The position numbers and the translations under genes were made by a program. A stretch of 64,000 bases of DNA from Candidatus Omnitrophota bacterium (GTDB lineage Bacteria; Omnitrophota; Gorgyraeia; Gygaellales; Profunditerraquicolaceae): positions 6,449-70,448 of the forward strand of contig VGKG01000002.1 in NCBI GenBank assembly GCA_016867115.1, in the 5' to 3' direction. This document shows, piece by piece, positions 57,058-62,617 of the stretch (position 1 is its first letter; each line of letters begins with the position of its first letter). The notes beneath the pieces are model-generated. The model ran no database searches. It saw nothing but the letters and a program-made list of their open reading frames with translations, and was not told the DNA's origin.

Positions 57058-57856
57058 CCCGAAATACAGCCTTGTCATCTCGGCACTGCTGGTAGTGATC
57101 ATCCTGCAATGGATCTATATTGCCCGCACCCACCGGCCGGAAAAACCGTCGAAGGAAGCGATAAGGCCTGAACCAAAGCCTCCGGTGACGCAGGCGGTAA
57201 AGGGGAGGATCGCCATTGTCCTGGATGACTGGGGTTACAACCTGAACAATCTAGGGCTTATCGAAGAGATCAGATATCCGGTCACCCTGGCGGTATTGCC
57301 GAACCTGGCTTTTTCGGAGAGGATCGCCAAAGAACTTAATGCCAGGGGTTTCGAGGTCATTCTGCACCTGCCTATGGAGCCGCGGGAAAAGAAGCGCCTT
57401 GAGAAGAATACGGTGATGGTTTCGATGAGCCGGGAGAAGCTCGGCGATATCCTCGACGATGACCTGGCTGCCGTACCTTTTGCGCGGGGGGTCTCAAATC
57501 ACATGGGTTCTCTGGCTACGAGGGATAACGCGACCATGGAGGCGCTGTTCAGGGAGCTGAAGAAGAGGCGCCTTTATTTTCTGGACAGCTACGTCTCTTC
57601 AGGCAACACCGGGCTTGAAGCCGCCAGAAAGGTGAATCTGAGGTACGCCCGCCGGGACGTGTTCCTGGATAACCGGCTTGAAGCCTCGTATATCCGCAGA
57701 CAGGTCCAGCAGCTGAAAATGAAGGCAAAGATGCGCGGCGAGGCGATCGGCATAGGCCATGACCGCAGGGCTACGCTTGAAGTCCTGAAAGAAATGATGC
57801 CGCAGCTTGCCAAGGAAGGATACCGGTTCGTATTCGTTTCGGAGCTGGTGGAATAA
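57035..57856 (+). CDS. Divergent polysaccharide deacetylase family protein (YibQ-like)
   Basis: TM anchor followed by …RIAIVLDDWGYN…VTLAVLPNL…EVILHLPMEP…, the YibQ family signature. GTG start overlaps the ctpA end. Confidence 0.7.
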   Translation: MKRQPQSSPKYSLVISALLVVIILQWIYIARTHRPEKPSKEAIRPEPKPPVTQAVKGRIAIVLDDWGYNLNNLGLIEEIRYPVTLAVLPNLAFSERIAKELNARGFEVILHLPMEPREKKRLEKNTVMVSMSREKLGDILDDDLAAVPFARGVSNHMGSLATRDNATMEALFRELKKRRLYFLDSYVSSGNTGLEAARKVNLRYARRDVFLDNRLEASYIRRQVQQLKMKAKMRGEAIGIGHDRRATLEVLKEMMPQLAKEGYRFVFVSELVE

Positions 57857-58840
57857 ATGTACGTTTTAGGGATCGAGACATCTTGCGATGAGACATCTGC
57901 AGCCGTGGTCAAAGACGGCCGCAAGATCCTTTCTAATGTCGTCAGCTCGAGCCTGAAGTTCCATAAGAAGTACGGAGGCGTCGTTCCCGAGATCGCATCG
58001 CGCCTATGCCTTGAGACGATCTCTTTTGTCACGGATGACGCGCTCGGCCAGGCAGGGGTAAGTCTTAAGGATATAGGCCTAGTCAGCGTGACCAGCGGCC
58101 CCGGGCTACTGGGTTCGTTACTGGTCGGCGTATCTTTTGCCAAATCGCTCTACCTTGCCTTAGGCGTGCCGCTATTGGGCGTTGACCATATCCAGAGCCA
58201 CGTTTATGCAAACTTCCTGAACGGCAGGCCGATAAAACTGCCCTTTATCGCCCTGGTCGTCTCAGGCGGCCATACCAGCCTCTTTTTTGTGGAAGATTTT
58301 GGCAGGATCCGGACCCTGGGAGAGACTCAGGATGACGCCTGCGGCGAGGCGTTTGATAAGGTGGCAAAGATTTTGGGCCTCGGTTACCCGGGCGGCCCTC
58401 TGATCGAGAAGCTGGCGAGGTCAGGGAATCCTAAAAAGATAAGATTCCGGTGTTCTGAAACCGGCCGGGAGCTTGATTTCAGTTTTAGCGGGATAAAGAC
58501 CGCGGTGCTTTACGCGGTAAGGGGGAGGCGATTGACATTGCAGGAGAAGAGGGATATCGCCGCCTCCTTCCAGGAGTCTGCGATCGGGGCCCTGATCAGG
58601 AAAGCTCATTTAGCCTGCAGGCTTAAGAGGACGCCGCGCCTGGTCATCGGCGGAGGAGTGGTCGCAAACAGCAGATTAAGGGAAAGGTTTTACGCAGAAT
58701 CTAAGAAGGCGGGCATAGATTGTTATTTTCCCGCATCTGACCTTTGCACGGACAATGCGGCTATGGTCGCCGGATTCGGGCACGCCTTGTTCAAAAGAGG
58801 CCAACGGTCCGGCCTTTATCTGACCGCGGGAGCCGGTTAA
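57857..58840 (+). CDS. tsaD: tRNA N6-adenosine threonylcarbamoyltransferase TsaD
   Basis: MYVLGIETSCDETSAAVV…, a Kae1/TsaD family metal-binding HxxH region. Confidence 0.9.
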   Translation: MYVLGIETSCDETSAAVVKDGRKILSNVVSSSLKFHKKYGGVVPEIASRLCLETISFVTDDALGQAGVSLKDIGLVSVTSGPGLLGSLLVGVSFAKSLYLALGVPLLGVDHIQSHVYANFLNGRPIKLPFIALVVSGGHTSLFFVEDFGRIRTLGETQDDACGEAFDKVAKILGLGYPGGPLIEKLARSGNPKKIRFRCSETGRELDFSFSGIKTAVLYAVRGRRLTLQEKRDIAASFQESAIGALIRKAHLACRLKRTPRLVIGGGVVANSRLRERFYAESKKAGIDCYFPASDLCTDNAAMVAGFGHALFKRGQRSGLYLTAGAG

Positions 58841-58864
58841 TCGAATCAGAATGGAGGCATAAAT

Positions 58865-59305
58865 ATGCTTACAGACTTGGATATCATCATGCGCCTGACG
58901 CTGACTATGGTCTTAAGCGGGCTGATCGGGCTTGAACGCCAGTTACACCGCCGCGCTGCGGGGCTGCGTACCCATATGCTGGTCTCCATGGGCAGCTGCC
59001 TTATCATGTTGACATCGCTTTATGTTTTTGATATATATAAGGATAAGGCGGCACCTGATCCGGCACGTATTGCCGCAGGCGTCATCACCGGCATCGGATT
59101 TTTAGGGGCCGGTACGATTATCCGCGAGCCGGAAGGGGTCAGGGGCCTGACCACGGCAGCCAGCCTTTGGGTGGTCGCAGGCATAGGCTTAGCCGTCGGT
59201 TGCGGTTTTTTTAATGCCGGGATCTATACTACGGTCCTGACAGTGATTGCTCTTTTTTTTATGCGCTATATAGAGGGATTTATACCGGAAGAGGGAAAGA
59301 AGTAA
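58865..59305 (+). CDS. MgtC/SapB-family membrane protein
   Basis: …LSGLIGLERQLH…GLRTHMLVSMGS…, four TM segments. Confidence 0.75.
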   Translation: MLTDLDIIMRLTLTMVLSGLIGLERQLHRRAAGLRTHMLVSMGSCLIMLTSLYVFDIYKDKAAPDPARIAAGVITGIGFLGAGTIIREPEGVRGLTTAASLWVVAGIGLAVGCGFFNAGIYTTVLTVIALFFMRYIEGFIPEEGKK

Positions 59306-59325
59306 TTAAACGGGGGAGGTGACAG

Positions 59326-59829
59326 ATGGCCTTTAAGAAGAAGATGGAGGAAAAGATCCTGGATGTAGATGCTTCCATGACCGGGACCCTGAGTTTCAAA
59401 GACCCGGTTAACCTGCGCATCAACGGAAAGTTTGAAGGTAACCTCAATACCAAGGGAAACCTTACCATCGGTCCGGCAGCCATCGTGCTTGCGGATATCG
59501 TCGGCGACAATATTATCATCGGGGGAAGGGTCAAGGGGAAGATTACCGCAAGGGAGAGGCTGACGCTTCTTCCTTCGGCGGTAGTAGAGGGAGACATCTA
59601 TCCGGCAAGGCTCAATGTCACGGAAGGCGCGATCCTTGAGGGTAAATGCGTGATGCTGCAGGATTTTCTCAACGCCGCGGAAGTGGCGAAGTACCTGGAG
59701 ATCGACCTTAACTCAGTAATGGAATGGGCCAATTCCGGCAAGATGCCCGGGCACAGGGAAGGAAGCGACTGGAAGTTCGAGCGTAAATCAATCGATGCCT
59801 GGCTGGCCGCAGGCAAGATAGAAAGGTAA
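59326..59829 (+). CDS. Bactofilin-domain protein fused to a C-terminal excisionase-family (HTH_17) DNA-binding domain
   Basis: Beta-helical bactofilin repeats (…INGKFEGNLNTKGNLTIGPAAIVLADIVGDNIIIGGRVKGKI…VEGDIY…LEGKCVM) followed by …VAKYLEIDLNSVMEWANSGKMPGHREGSDWKFERKSIDAWL. Confidence 0.7.
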   Translation: MAFKKKMEEKILDVDASMTGTLSFKDPVNLRINGKFEGNLNTKGNLTIGPAAIVLADIVGDNIIIGGRVKGKITARERLTLLPSAVVEGDIYPARLNVTEGAILEGKCVMLQDFLNAAEVAKYLEIDLNSVMEWANSGKMPGHREGSDWKFERKSIDAWLAAGKIER

Positions 59830-59853
59830 GCCCCCGGGCTTTAAGAAAGACCC

Positions 59854-60162
59854 ATGGCAGAAGAAAAGCTTTTGACGGTAAGGGACGTTTCCATCCTGTT
59901 GGGAGTTTCTGAGAAGGAAGTGGTCGACCTGGCTGAGACCGGCAAGATCCCCGCCTATAAAGTAGGCGGCGTATTCCTGCGTTTTAAAAAGGACCATATC
60001 CTGGAATATCAGAAGTCGGTTACGCCTTATGCGGCAAAGCCCGAAGAGGAAAAAGAGTCCCCGGGCGTAAGGTTAAGCGACTTCTTTTATTTTAACGACT
60101 TTTACATACTGGCTATCCTGATCATCGCCCTCCTTTTGGTGGTTATTTTCAGAGGTTATTAA
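59854..60162 (+). CDS. Excisionase-family HTH (HTH_17) protein with a C-terminal transmembrane anchor
   Basis: …LLTVRDVSILLGVSEKEVVDLAETGKIPAYKVGGVFLRFKKDHILEY…, then the hydrophobic tail FYILAILIIALLLVVIF. Confidence 0.6.
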   Translation: MAEEKLLTVRDVSILLGVSEKEVVDLAETGKIPAYKVGGVFLRFKKDHILEYQKSVTPYAAKPEEEKESPGVRLSDFFYFNDFYILAILIIALLLVVIFRGY

Positions 60163-60169
60163 CCCGCTT

Positions 60170-60847
60170 ATGTCTCCAAAATCCGGATATTGCGACTTAG
60201 GCTTTGCCAAGCTTGATACGGACAGAAAGAAGCGCAGGGGGTATCCTGAAGCGGTCTATTGTCCGGGCAAGGATTTGGACTACCTTGAGCGCATCGCCGG
60301 ACAATTCATCAAACACCGGCAGGACCTGCTGCTTACGAAACTGGATAAAGAGGTTTACGCCTGCCTTAAGGGGAAGTTTCCTCTGCTCGGTTACGACCCG
60401 CGCGCGAGATTAGGATTTATCCTGAAGGACAAGGCCAAGACGAAAAAAGGCATGGTCCTGGTGGTCAGCGCCGGGACTTCGGATATTCCCGTAGCCGAAG
60501 AAGCAAGCCTGACCCTTGAGGCCATGGGGAGCCGGGTGAAAAGGCTCTATGATGTGGGGGTAGCCGGGGTGCACCGCCTGATGCAGAACCTGCCTCTTTT
60601 AAGAAAAGCAAAGGTGATCATTGTGGTTGCCGGAATGGAAGGCGCGCTGGCCAGCCTTGTGAGCGGCCTGGTGAAAGCGCCGGTGATCTCAGTCCCCACC
60701 AGTTGCGGCTATGGCGCAAACTTCGAAGGCCTGGCTGCGTTATTGACCATGCTCAACGGCTGTTCGCCGGGAGTAGGCGTTGTGAATATTGACAACGGTT
60801 TCGGGGCTGGATACCTGGCGGCGATCATTAATAATAGTAGGCAGTAG
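60170..60847 (+). CDS. larB: LarB-like PurE-fold protein (nickel-pincer cofactor biosynthesis carboxylase/hydrolase family, COG1691)
   Basis: The N-terminal …LDTDRKKRRGYPEAVYCPGK… extension is typical of LarB, followed by a PurE-like fold (…VVSAGTSDIP…IIVVAGMEGALASLVSG…PVISVPTS…). Confidence 0.65.
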   Translation: MSPKSGYCDLGFAKLDTDRKKRRGYPEAVYCPGKDLDYLERIAGQFIKHRQDLLLTKLDKEVYACLKGKFPLLGYDPRARLGFILKDKAKTKKGMVLVVSAGTSDIPVAEEASLTLEAMGSRVKRLYDVGVAGVHRLMQNLPLLRKAKVIIVVAGMEGALASLVSGLVKAPVISVPTSCGYGANFEGLAALLTMLNGCSPGVGVVNIDNGFGAGYLAAIINNSRQ

Positions 60848-60866
60848 GCTGTATGCAGGATGCAGG

Positions 60867-61286
60867 ATGAAGGAAAAAATAACGCTGAAAGAGGCGGTGA
60901 GGTTTCATGGGCATCTGGGGCCTTATCTGGTCCTCGGATTGCTGGCCGGCGAGGCCGCCTTAAAAAGGCTTAATTGCAGGAAGTTTTTCGGTCTGGAAGT
61001 CAAGGTGCGGGGCGCAGGCGAAAAGCCCAGGTCTTGTCTGGTCGACGGCCTGCAATTATCTACGGGAGCGACATACGGTAAAGGCAACATCGAAAAGTTA
61101 GACGGCAAAAAGATAAGCATCGCCTTTAGGAACAGGGATAATAACAAACGCCTCAAGATCAGCCTTAAGGAGGAGCTGGCCCGGAAACTCGAAGGCCTGA
61201 AAGGCCACCGCGACAGCGAAGCGTTTGCAGGCGCACTCTATAGGGCCAAACCTCAAAAGATCTTCAACTTCACAACAGGCGGGTAA
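60867..61286 (+). CDS. FmdE-family protein (formylmethanofuran dehydrogenase subunit E-like domain)
   Basis: …VRFHGHLGPYLVLG… and …SCLVDGLQLSTGATYGKGNI… match the FmdE family core. Start at ATG 60867. Confidence 0.65.
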   Translation: MKEKITLKEAVRFHGHLGPYLVLGLLAGEAALKRLNCRKFFGLEVKVRGAGEKPRSCLVDGLQLSTGATYGKGNIEKLDGKKISIAFRNRDNNKRLKISLKEELARKLEGLKGHRDSEAFAGALYRAKPQKIFNFTTGG

Positions 61287-61288
61287 AA

Positions 61289-62617
61289 ATGGCACTCTCA
61301 GGGTTGGATATTTACAAACTGCTGGCTAAAACAAATTGTCGGGAATGCGGATTTGCTACGTGCCTGGCTTTTGCCATGGCGCTGGCCAAGAAGGCGGCAG
61401 GCATAGAGAAGTGCCCCTATATAAACGAGGAGGCAAAGCGGATGCTTGAGGCCTCGGCTCAGCCGCCCATTAAGCTGCTGTGTATTGGCGGGGGAGAAAA
61501 GAGTTTTGAGATCGGAAATGAGTCGGTAATGTTCAGGCACGAGGAGAAGTTTCACCGCCCTTGCGGCATCGGGTTTATTCTCGATGACGGCCTTAGCGAC
61601 GCGCAAATTAAAGAGAGGCTTCGGAAGATCAATAAATCGAGATTTGAGCGCGTAGGCCAGATGCTTGAGGTGAATCTGGTAGCGGTCCGCCAGAATAAGT
61701 CCGGCCAGAGATTCTGTGACGCTGTGAAGCTCGTAGCGGAGAATACGGACCTGGCGCTAGTGCTGATGAGCCGCGACCCGGCTGCGCTAAAGCCTGCCCT
61801 TGAGTTGCTTAAGGCCAGAAGGCCGGTCATTTACCCTGCTGTGAAAGATAACCTGCAGGAGTTTGCGCTTCTGGCAAAGGAGTACGGGGCAATCCTGGTA
61901 ATAACCTGTCCCGATCTTGAAGGCCTCTCGGCAGCGGCGGCACAGTTAAATAAGGAGGGCTTAAGCGATATTCTTCTTGATACCGGGAAAAAAGAGCTCT
62001 CCGATAAGATCTGGGACCTGACGCAACTGCGCAGGCTCCCCTTGAAAAGGTCGAACCGCAGCCTCGGATATCCTGTCCTGGCCGTAGCCGAAGAGGATGA
62101 TCCCTACGAAGAGGCGTTAGAGGCAGTTACCTATATAGGCAAATACGCCGGCATCGTCCTGATCAGGGGGATAGAAAGCTGGGAAGTCCTTTCGCTGCTG
62201 ACCCTGAGGCAGAACATCTATACTGACCCGCAGAAGCCCCTGCAGATCGAGCCGAAGCTTTATTCCATCGGACAGGTGGATGATAAGTCGCCGGTGCTGG
62301 TCACTACCAACTTTTCGCTTACCTATTACACGGTGCTGGGCGAAGTCGAGGCAAGCAAGGTCCCTTCCTATATTATGAGCGTGGATACCGAGGGCATGTC
62401 CGTATTGACCGCCTGGGCAGCGGAAAAGTTCACTCCCGAAAAGATCACTGCCACCGTCAATAAATACGGGGTCAGGCAGATGGTCAGGCATAACCGCCTT
62501 ATCATCCCGGGTTACGTTGCGGTGATGAGCGGGGAGCTGGAGGAGAGCTCCGGCTGCAAGGTCGTGGTGGGGCCGAAGGAAGCGGCCGGATTGCCTTCGT
62601 TCCTGAAAAATCTATAA
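61289..62617 (+). CDS. acsC: Corrinoid iron-sulfur protein large subunit (acetyl-CoA synthase/decarbonylase gamma subunit, AcsC/CdhE)
   Basis: N-terminal [4Fe-4S] motif CRECGFATCLAFAMALA…CPY. The C-terminal …LYTDPQKP…TTNFSLTYYTVLGEVEASKVPSYIMSVDTEGMSVLTAWAAEKF… matches AcsC closely. Confidence 0.85.
   Translation: MALSGLDIYKLLAKTNCRECGFATCLAFAMALAKKAAGIEKCPYINEEAKRMLEASAQPPIKLLCIGGGEKSFEIGNESVMFRHEEKFHRPCGIGFILDDGLSDAQIKERLRKINKSRFERVGQMLEVNLVAVRQNKSGQRFCDAVKLVAENTDLALVLMSRDPAALKPALELLKARRPVIYPAVKDNLQEFALLAKEYGAILVITCPDLEGLSAAAAQLNKEGLSDILLDTGKKELSDKIWDLTQLRRLPLKRSNRSLGYPVLAVAEEDDPYEEALEAVTYIGKYAGIVLIRGIESWEVLSLLTLRQNIYTDPQKPLQIEPKLYSIGQVDDKSPVLVTTNFSLTYYTVLGEVEASKVPSYIMSVDTEGMSVLTAWAAEKFTPEKITATVNKYGVRQMVRHNRLIIPGYVAVMSGELEESSGCKVVVGPKEAAGLPSFLKNL

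Follow-up and report, generated by a model that had tools for sequence, protein, structure and literature searches.

Introduction

Canonical bactofilins, as represented by BacA of Caulobacter crescentus and TtBac of Thermus thermophilus, are built on a beta-helix core with a hydrophobic residue at the polymerisation position and a basic/aromatic tail; their C-terminal tails are disordered, and their clients are provided in trans. The present study is concerned with two adjacent genes, open reading frames (ORFs) A and B, located in a 64,000-nucleotide stretch of DNA from Candidatus Omnitrophota bacterium (GenBank assembly GCA_016867115.1, contig VGKG01000002.1, positions 6,449 to 70,448 of the forward strand), which in its full length is referred to as the window. 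The product of ORF A has the same core, a hydrophobic residue at the aligned position and a tail that resembles the canonical one, but it carries a folded winged helix-turn-helix (wHTH) within about 6 residues of the core, and its gene is followed by that of a dedicated tail-anchored partner (ORF B), which is not a feature of canonical bactofilins. In our judgement it is highly probable that the pair represents an uncharacterised, apparently Omnitrophota-specific two-gene module, in which a bactofilin scaffold joined to a wHTH domain and a tail-anchored wHTH partner are very likely co-produced and act together at the cytoplasmic face of the membrane.

The winged helix of RacA from Bacillus subtilis is joined to a self-assembling domain, and the protein anchors the chromosome to a membrane-associated polar scaffold (DivIVA). 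Its MerR-like winged helix (5i44) is a structural neighbour of the winged helices of both ORFs. RacA makes use of a coiled coil and DivIVA, together with an arginine equivalent to R30 of BldC for GC-rich sites, whereas here a bactofilin is present and the arginine is replaced by an acid. The BacNOP–PadC–ParAB system of Myxococcus xanthus (PMC5703909), in which a bactofilin scaffold linked to DNA-binding proteins positions chromosome regions, is alike in principle. That link is indirect, running through PadC and ParB (ParB/Srx-type fold), whereas ORF A would carry a putative DNA-binding wHTH of the Xis/BldC type in cis; genes for ParB, PadC or ParA were seen neither around the pair in the window nor in 12 other contexts, a ParA-like gene being found only in the divergent clade of loci L085 and L087. 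BacR of B. subtilis (YhbD, DUF4004) is an HTH protein genetically linked to the bactofilins BacE and BacF, held at the membrane and modulated in its DNA binding (PMC13649987). It is soluble and separate from the bactofilins, measures about 25 kDa and ends in a DUF4004 part, whereas in the present pair one HTH domain is fused to the bactofilin and the other has a transmembrane (TM) anchor of its own; DUF4004 was matched by neither ORF A nor ORF B in the Pfam scan, and the resemblance of the pair to the BacR module is functional only. BacNOP–PadC–ParB, BacR with BacE/BacF and, from general background, RacA–DivIVA may be regarded as the closest working analogies.

The closest folds of both winged helices are those of BldC, Xis and RdfS (6ama, 4j2n and 8dgl), and multimeric arrays are normal for BldC and RdfS. 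BldC needs R30 and H46, whereas ORF A has E/D at both positions and ORF B has D at the R30 position; the BldC family model (NF033787) gave 19.4 bits for ORF A and 15.3 bits for ORF B against a cut-off of 77. No recombinase lies near the pair, and it would be a separate polymer domain, and not the DNA, that builds an array; the adjacent integrase within a mobile element that marks an excisionase or recombination directionality factor was not found. MamR is a small HTH_17 protein at a membrane organelle, without demonstrated DNA targets and with a modelled negative surface patch (PMC3905215), but, unlike ORF B, it has no TM helix. The MamR model (NF040990) matched ORF B with 19 bits (E = 0.0013) against a cut-off of 100, and there are no magnetosome genes in the window. 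ORF B also differs from regulators of the ToxR/CadC type, since its domain is HTH_17 and not Trans_reg_C, and since it ends 3 residues after the TM helix with no periplasmic sensor.

Results and Discussion

Domain architecture and predicted folds

ORF A (59326..59829, plus strand, 167 aa) and ORF B (59854..60162, plus strand, 102 aa; coordinates from the ORF list, stop codons included) are co-directional and are separated by a spacer of 24 nt within the region 59326-60162. Residues 11-108 of ORF A (59356..59649, plus strand) were matched by the Pfam family Bactofilin (PF04519, E = 4.4e-24, 85 bits, gathering score 27.9), and residues 114-163 (59665..59814, plus strand) by HTH_17 (PF12728, E = 6.1e-12, 46.1 bits, gathering score 27); the TIGR01764 'excise' domain model gave 33 bits (cut-off 28.8). 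The AlphaFold2 model of ORF A (predicted local distance difference test (pLDDT) 92.7) consists of a beta-helix (residues 11-105, with a pLDDT of 96-98 in the core) followed by a wHTH (residues 117-161) with helices at 117-124, 128-137 and 153-161 and a wing at 143-152. Only about 6-10 residues connect the last beta-strand (103-105) to the first wHTH helix (117). The N-terminal tail MAFKKKMEEK (residues 1-10, 59326..59355, plus strand) is basic and aromatic, and its low pLDDT (65) is consistent with flexibility.

Both parts of ORF A were compared with known structures. The beta-helix was matched by phmmer to TtBac (6ria) and BacA (2n3d) and reached target-normalised TM-scores of 0.80 (BacA, 2n3d) and 0.76 (TtBac, 6rib) in Foldseek; the winged helix was placed by Foldseek next to BldC, RdfS, RacA and Xis, the superposition on BldC (6ama) giving a root-mean-square deviation (rmsd) of 1.5 A at 31-33% identity. 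ORF A thus scores well above the bactofilin threshold, and its N-terminal domain is predicted to adopt the right-handed beta-helix fold.

In ORF B, HTH_17 was matched over residues 6-54 (59869..60015, plus strand; E = 3.9e-10, 40.3 bits, gathering score 27) and TIGR01764 with 33.5 bits (cut-off 28.8). The order of elements in its AlphaFold2 model is a winged helix (6-56, pLDDT about 85), a disordered segment (59-68, pLDDT <50), a short helix (70-80) over the aromatic motif described below and a C-terminal helix (82-99, pLDDT about 90) that stops 3 residues short of the C-terminus. This last element coincides with a predicted TM helix (60097..60150, plus strand), the most hydrophobic 19-residue stretch of the protein being located at residues 83-101 (Kyte–Doolittle peak 2.78). 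It is preceded by the aromatic juxtamembrane motif RLSDFFYFNDFY (residues 73-84, 60070..60105, plus strand; conservation 0.88), in which D76, F77, D82, F83 and Y84 are invariant, and by a variable disordered linker (residues 57-69, 60022..60060, plus strand). Mean conservation is 0.82 in the wHTH domain, with R10, E20, Y35, K36, R43 and F44 invariant, against 0.40 in the linker. Foldseek neighbours of the ORF B winged helix are BldC, Pukovnik Xis, RdfS, RacA and MerR proteins, and both winged helices superimpose on BldC (6ama/6amk), Pukovnik Xis (4j2n) and RdfS (8dgl) with an rmsd of 1.0-2.1 A at 21-33% identity. The HTH domains of both ORFs exceed the HTH_17 and TIGR01764 cut-offs and are predicted to fold as winged helix-turn-helices, and the model of ORF B is that of a tail-anchored protein with its winged helix in the cytoplasm.

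The coordinates and the architecture proposed in a preceding sequence-only reading of this DNA were thereby confirmed, the HTH-like segments of both proteins passing the thresholds of the hidden Markov models. ORF B had also been described there as a membrane-tethered paralogous DNA binder; the hydrophobic C-terminal helix agrees with the tethering, but no paralogy was detected, as the two HTH_17 domains have only the Pfam family in common and gave no BLASTP alignment with each other.

Distribution and conservation of the fusion

A homology search of 5.8 billion proteins returned 2,085 homologues of ORF A. The best 120 of these have lengths of 166-173 aa, contain both Pfam domains and are 75-93% identical to ORF A, apart from the identical protein P0001, which is named as from a Candidatus Omnitrophica metagenome-assembled genome. 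With a second profile, built from distant fusion members, 656 proteins were obtained, and both domains are present in one protein in all 120 of those listed. Across the listed matches of both searches the fusion measures 164-191 aa, and the organism names given are all Omnitrophota apart from one 'Margulisiibacteriota' label. About 20 further full-length fusion clusters with 44-56% identity, and a few with 24-38%, were found by a HMMER scan of 1.84 billion cluster representatives (50% identity). A genome scan with one genome per GTDB species gave 169 genomes with an ORF A match; in the best 80 of these ORF A is 70-81% identical, and the genomes belong to the Omnitrophota, some being mislabelled. 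Records titled 'uncultured Planctomycetales bacterium' or 'Candidatus Pacebacteria' (L011, L016, L025, L026, L037, L070 and others) contain the same syntenic block with 75-79% identity, and their taxonomic labels are probably wrong.

The median identity of ORF A (75.6%) is the highest in its neighbourhood over these 80 loci, which had been picked by similarity to ORF A; the corresponding values are 72.7 for MgtC, 66.4 for LarB, 65.4 for CtpA, 64.9 for AcsC, 64.5 for TsaD, 58.3 for ORF B, 58.2 for FmdE and 52.8 for the YibQ-like protein. Along ORF A, mean column conservation among 120 relatives amounts to 0.94 in the tail, 0.86 in the beta-helix, 0.97 in the linker and 0.88 in the winged helix, so that the parts of the protein differ little in this respect. 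The homologues of ORF B number 1,190 (about 102 aa), and all those with an organism name are from Omnitrophota.

Bactofilin-only matches (P0140, P0142, P0147, P0155 and P0165; 55-63% identity) were considered as possible cases of bactofilin and HTH encoded by separate genes in relatives. This was rejected: their C-termini are junk-like or, in P0165, a truncated HTH start, as is typical of frameshifts or contig ends, and we regard these matches as artefacts. The occurrence of both domains in one protein in every listed match speaks against the lineage-specific artefact that the sequence-only reading had allowed for; the architecture is genuine, old and strongly constrained and not a product of gene calling. 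Fusion and partner appear to be specific to the Omnitrophota. Public annotations label the proteins 'polymer-forming cytoskeletal protein', 'excisionase family DNA binding protein' or 'helix-turn-helix domain-containing protein'; no description of a bactofilin–HTH_17 architecture was found in the literature, in line with the sequence-only reading, whose author was not aware of a characterisation.

One relative of the same bactofilin subfamily, P0153 (253 aa), is 47% identical to ORF A over the beta-helix and has the same N-terminal motif, with a PilZ domain and not HTH_17 at its C-terminus. This suggests that the bactofilin core serves as a platform for interchangeable C-terminal output domains.

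Conservation of the gene pair

An ORF B orthologue was found directly downstream of ORF A in 79 of the 80 close loci, the exception being a truncated contig, and immediately downstream of the fusion in 87/87 extractable loci. Since the 80 close loci have a long syntenic block in common, distant lineages were also examined. ORF B follows in eight of these (L081, L083, L086, L088-L092), in which ORF A is 31-50% identical, the partner being in every case an HTH_17 gene of 94-105 aa immediately after the fusion. The surroundings vary. L081/L082 (ORF A homologue about 47% identical) have intein-like genes upstream and GreA, ACPS, YdjC and SurE downstream; L083/L084 (36-38%) have genes for a SPOR protein and a TPR-PDZ protein upstream; L086 has SIS/CTP-transferase and ThiD2 genes downstream; and an AIRC (LarB-like) gene lies downstream in L088. 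The upstream block GatAB–CtpA–TsaD(–MgtC) is retained in L089, L090 and L092, with genes for SNase, an ATP_bind_3 protein (TilS-like) and FtsH downstream, and again in L091, with an AIRC gene and a glycosyltransferase gene downstream. Neighbours other than ORF B thus differ in L081, L083 and L086, and the downstream neighbours differ in L089, L090 and L092. The aromatic motif is kept in distant partners (for example DFFYFNSFY in L088 and DVFYFNDFY in L091), most of which have an F/Y-rich motif, and the C-terminal hydrophobic segment is present in 4/4 distant partners tested.

Because ORF B follows in all intact loci and also in distant lineages with other neighbours, gene order identifies ORF A and ORF B as a conserved two-gene module at operon level. 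The spacer between the two genes has a median length of 15 nt in 87 pairs (<=30 nt in 68/87, with several overlaps), which indicates co-transcription and probably stoichiometric co-production, and the tight pairing suggests co-translation and a complex of A with B. Covariation between the two proteins (mutual information with average product correction (APC), 86 paired sequences, effective number 61) was uninformative with regard to such a complex: there was no enrichment between the two winged helices in comparison with other blocks, and the top pairs were hypervariable or clade-marking columns.

The partner is missing only in the most divergent clade (P0263/P0286, 24-26% identity). The divergent fusions P0286/P0278, likewise 24-26% identical to ORF A and without the tail-anchored partner, are encoded in L085:1-6850 and L087:1-6711 (a JGI 3300009777 contig and an ENA ERZ27245622 contig, respectively), in each case as the last gene of a co-directional cluster. 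The cluster encodes a membrane protein similar to MamF_MmsF, a regulator of the HTH_31 type (opposite strand), an actin-like protein (Pfam Volactin, weak MamK match), a ParA-like ATPase with a fused AMPK1_CBM glycogen-binding module, and two uncharacterised proteins, each about 216 aa long; it has the look of a cluster for cargo positioning or a cytoskeleton. A link to magnetosomes was considered and dropped, as it consisted of the weak MamR match, the MamF_MmsF Pfam label in L085 and the weak MamK match (NCBIfam, E 1e-4), and no magnetosome cluster is claimed.

Scaffold and membrane features

Residue L104 of ORF A aligns with F105 of TtBac and F130 of BacA, the positions at which the substitutions F105R (TtBac) and F130R (BacA) have been used to block polymerisation (PMC12448750 and structure entry title). 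Proteins of the close clade have L, F or M at position 104, and distant family members have F. The tail MAFKKKMEEK, nearly invariant among the relatives, is similar to the bactofilin membrane-targeting peptides MFSKQAKS (BacA) and MFSRKTE (PMC12448750). In the BacA peptide, F2, K4 and K7 are critical, and the peptide is effective only through the avidity of the polymer (PMC12448750). By its sequence, the ORF A tail thus resembles a membrane-targeting sequence, and ORF A may bind the membrane through it. The bitopic client PbpC can contribute to the attachment of a bactofilin to the membrane (PMC12448750) and is a useful analogy for ORF B.

DNA-binding features of the winged helices

Lambda Xis works as a head-to-tail oligomer on DNA. 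The same is reported for BldC (PMC5859096) and RdfS (PMC11963761). Since BldC and RdfS oligomerise on DNA, an array borne by a polymer would fit the habit of the family and could offset a weak affinity at the single site. Among the nearest solved structures are complexes of BldC, RacA and MerR proteins with DNA. Several basic residues are invariant or nearly so, namely R153, K154 and K139 in ORF A and R10, K36, R43 and K45 in ORF B.

The DNA contacts of BldC are provided by K26, T27, T29, R30, W31, K33, H46, R47 and R48, and DNA binding is abolished by the exchanges R30A and H46E (PMC5859096). Among these contacts, W31 (W134 in ORF A) and R48 (K150) are kept and T27 (S130) is replaced conservatively; backbone-mediated contacts are also retained. 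The contacts of K26 (N129), T29 (M132), K33 (N136) and R47 (W149) are lost, and acids occupy the positions of R30 (E133; E in 105 and D in 15 of 120 relatives) and of H46 (D148; D in 79 and E in 27 of 120). Judged by this alignment, the basic set that makes up the DNA-contact surface of BldC (K26, R30, K33, H46, R47, R48) is not present as such.

Several findings count against a scaffold that binds DNA. The acids at DNA-reading positions (E133 and D148 in ORF A, D25 in ORF B) are conserved; D25, placed at the R30 position by manual alignment, is D in 104, E in 8 and N in 7 of 120 relatives, and the recognition helix of ORF B, SEKEVVDLAETGK, is rich in acids. HTH_17 domains that the same query had retrieved, occurring alone or in tandem, served as controls: in 12 such domains (P0168, P0190, P0215) the R30 position is K/R in 7 and acidic in 0. 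The net charge of the ORF A domain (residues 114-161) is -2, with a mean of -2.4 over residues 111-167 in 109 relatives; that of the ORF B domain is +1, and those of 14 control domains range from -1 to +6, 13 being positive. A candidate binding site for the winged helices was not found. Finally, the short linker sets the winged helix beside the C-terminal polymerisation face, so that filament formation might be hindered or modified. The DNA binding that the sequence-only reading had taken for granted was derived from the family name, and the acids at the R30 and H46 positions together with the net negative charge of the ORF A domain call it into question.

CbpM, which has a MerR-like fold and was solved with the J-domain of CbpA (3ucs), is also found among the structural neighbours, and its complex shows that this type of fold can be recruited for protein binding. 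A filament that positions DNA is a possible reading, no better supported than that of a protein adaptor.

The control polypeptides are arrays in their own right: P0215 (417 aa) contains 7 HTH_17 domains, P0168 (231 aa) 3 and P0190 (135 aa) 2, and the domain that forms oligomers on DNA in BldC and RdfS is thus linked covalently in them.

Proposed mechanism and alternatives

We take the domain architecture, the fold, the conservation, the pairing of the genes and the tail-anchor topology as established, whereas polymerisation of ORF A, its binding to the membrane, a complex with ORF B and the binding of DNA are inferred. The beta-helix of ORF A would most likely form a nucleotide-independent, membrane-associated scaffold, held at the membrane by the MAFKKK tail, by ORF B or by both, and each subunit would display a rigidly attached winged helix of the BldC/Xis type. 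ORF B would be made together with ORF A, anchored in the cytoplasmic membrane by its C-terminal helix, and a flexible leash of roughly 15-25 residues would carry its winged helix in the cytoplasm. At the membrane scaffold, chromosomal DNA would then be held by the winged helices arrayed on A together with those of B; the contacts, individually weak and with low specificity, would grip in combination, and the pair would act as a compact tether or organiser between nucleoid and membrane. Such a tether, in which a membrane-bound bactofilin scaffold holds DNA through multivalent contacts with low specificity, is put forward tentatively as the first-ranked reading, although it falls short of being probable.

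Nearly as likely as DNA tethering, although unlikely when taken by itself, is a role of the HTH_17 domains as protein–protein adaptors that have lost DNA binding, the scaffold being morphogenetic or envelope-related, like most bactofilins, and ORF B serving it as membrane anchor or client; the winged helix of ORF B would dock, again with no great likelihood, either on that of ORF A in the head-to-tail manner of BldC or on the beta-helix. The acids at the R30 and H46 positions, the negative charge of the fused domain and the tight coupling of the genes would all be accounted for, and the hydrophobic residues of the BldC head-to-tail interface appear to be kept (L124, I126 and W134 in ORF A; L6, L7, Y35 and G38-G39 in ORF B). 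The CbpM–CbpA complex provides a structural precedent, bitopic clients such as PbpC aid the membrane binding of bactofilins (PMC12448750), and genes for the envelope proteins CtpA and YibQ-like lie upstream across much of the phylum. However, DNA is bound by almost all characterised HTH_17/MerR-like winged helices, several phosphate-contact positions and the invariant basic residues remain, and the two winged helices gave no covariation signal. An improbable further reading is that of a regulatory switch, in which polymerisation or sequestration at the membrane governs how far one or both winged helices, as transcription factors, can reach DNA; the pair would then be a fused version of B. subtilis BacR with BacE/BacF, and its own or envelope genes would be regulated by the state of the membrane or cell wall, which is equally improbable. 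Bactofilins do recruit the co-encoded BacR to the membrane and lower its DNA binding (PMC13649987), among solved relatives both domains are closest to BldC, which regulates transcription, and the outline of ORF B is similar to that of a membrane-tethered regulator. Yet ORF B has neither a sensor domain nor a periplasmic part beyond the 3 residues after its TM helix, the base-reading arginine has become an acid, and the pair lies inside long housekeeping arrays with no conserved upstream regulatory region and no excess of promoters over shuffled sequence. Very high conservation throughout a phylum is, moreover, more typical of structural proteins than of local regulators.

It is less likely still that ORF A, on account of the winged helix joined directly to the C-terminal face of its beta-helix, does not form filaments and that the bactofilin part, present as dimers or small oligomers, acts as a dimerisation or spacer module of a small DNA-binding protein. 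The linker of only about 6-10 residues, 97% conserved in the close clade, and the L in place of the usual F at interface position 104 in that clade are compatible with this, but in distant members the linker is about 10-20 residues longer and the F is the canonical one, the bactofilin score is high (85 bits), the surface conservation is as expected for a polymer, and the tail resembling membrane-targeting sequences is conserved, weak tails of this kind being thought to need polymer avidity (PMC12448750). A component of a mobile element or defence system, with the HTH_17 genes as excisionases or as proteins like MAD1 of MADS, has a negligible probability. Such an assignment could draw on domain-level matches to NF047737 MAD1 (46.8 and 38.2 bits), to PADLOC mad1 and to PHROG excisionase families; however, the MAD1 scores lie far under the 80-bit cut-off and the PADLOC scores amount to 26 and 19.6 bits, there is no integrase, methylase or other MADS gene nearby, the housekeeping array (GatAB, CtpA, TsaD, MgtC, LarB, AcsC) is syntenic across the phylum, and ORF A is vertically conserved at 70-83% identity. 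With matches below the cut-offs and a housekeeping context, this reading is effectively excluded.

Two more far-reaching readings are unlikely: that a bactofilin filament with one winged helix per subunit binds DNA directly and constitutes, with the tail-anchored partner, a minimal nucleotide-independent tether between chromosome and membrane, or that the winged helices of A and B pair in a heterotypic module of a new kind that descends from a DNA-binding fold. The tether version would amount to a ParB-less aid to anchoring or segregation, universal to ultrasmall Omnitrophota.

Genomic setting

The genes of the window include those for HflX, ClpB, DnaK, DnaJ, LptD, DnaG, TsaD, MgtC, LarB and an FmdE-family protein; CtpA, a YibQ-like deacetylase and an AcsC-like corrinoid protein are our own assignments for further ORFs, and gatA and gatB were assigned by synteny and ORF size only. 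It is an ordinary chromosomal region with no sign of a mobile element or defence island. The spacer upstream of ORF A measures 20 nt. A scan for promoters and terminators over 57800-61400 gave sites no more numerous than in shuffled sequence. The spacer between ORF A and ORF B contains a perfect 14-nt palindrome, AAGCCCCCGGGCTT (59828..59841, no strand assigned), which was noticed by sequence inspection and in a minus-strand scan for terminator-like sites; it is not present in the equivalent spacers of 86 other loci and is therefore probably incidental.

The upstream array gatA–gatB–ctpA–(yibQ-like deacetylase)–tsaD–mgtC (window:52903-59305) is kept deep within the Omnitrophota (L001-L080, L089-L092). 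On the downstream side the pair has variable neighbours, LarB–FmdE–AcsC in the window and SNase, TilS-like ATP_bind_3 protein and FtsH elsewhere. In window:60170-62617, LarB, a protein of nickel-pincer cofactor biosynthesis (283 bits, cut-off 175), is encoded directly between the HTH pair on one side and the FmdE-family gene and the AcsC-like corrinoid gene, the latter assigned without a family scan, on the other. The LarB–(FmdE)–AcsC adjacency is repeated in most close loci, and no larC or larE was seen in the stretch examined around LarB. An ORF of 1,085 aa on the minus strand (window:49235-52492) stands inside the otherwise plus-strand housekeeping region and had no Pfam match at E <= 1e-5.

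Conclusion

The conservation of ORF A is stronger than could have been known from the window, while its DNA-binding role is unproven and meets specific doubts in the residues at the DNA-reading positions. If true, the fusion of a nucleic-acid-type domain in cis, conserved throughout a phylum and combined with a dedicated membrane partner, would be a new mode of bactofilin use, and it could yield a very small nucleotide-independent device that links the membrane, a polymer and DNA or another ligand. Direct tethering of DNA by a bactofilin polymer, if shown, would raise the significance of the pair; should the winged helices prove to be protein adaptors, they would be a clear case of an excisionase-type fold in which DNA binding has been lost. 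Both proteins are short (167 and 102 aa) and thus readily testable. To our knowledge, almost nothing is known about the cell biology of the Omnitrophota, and ORF A, as one of the most conserved small proteins of its neighbourhood, may offer a handle on it.

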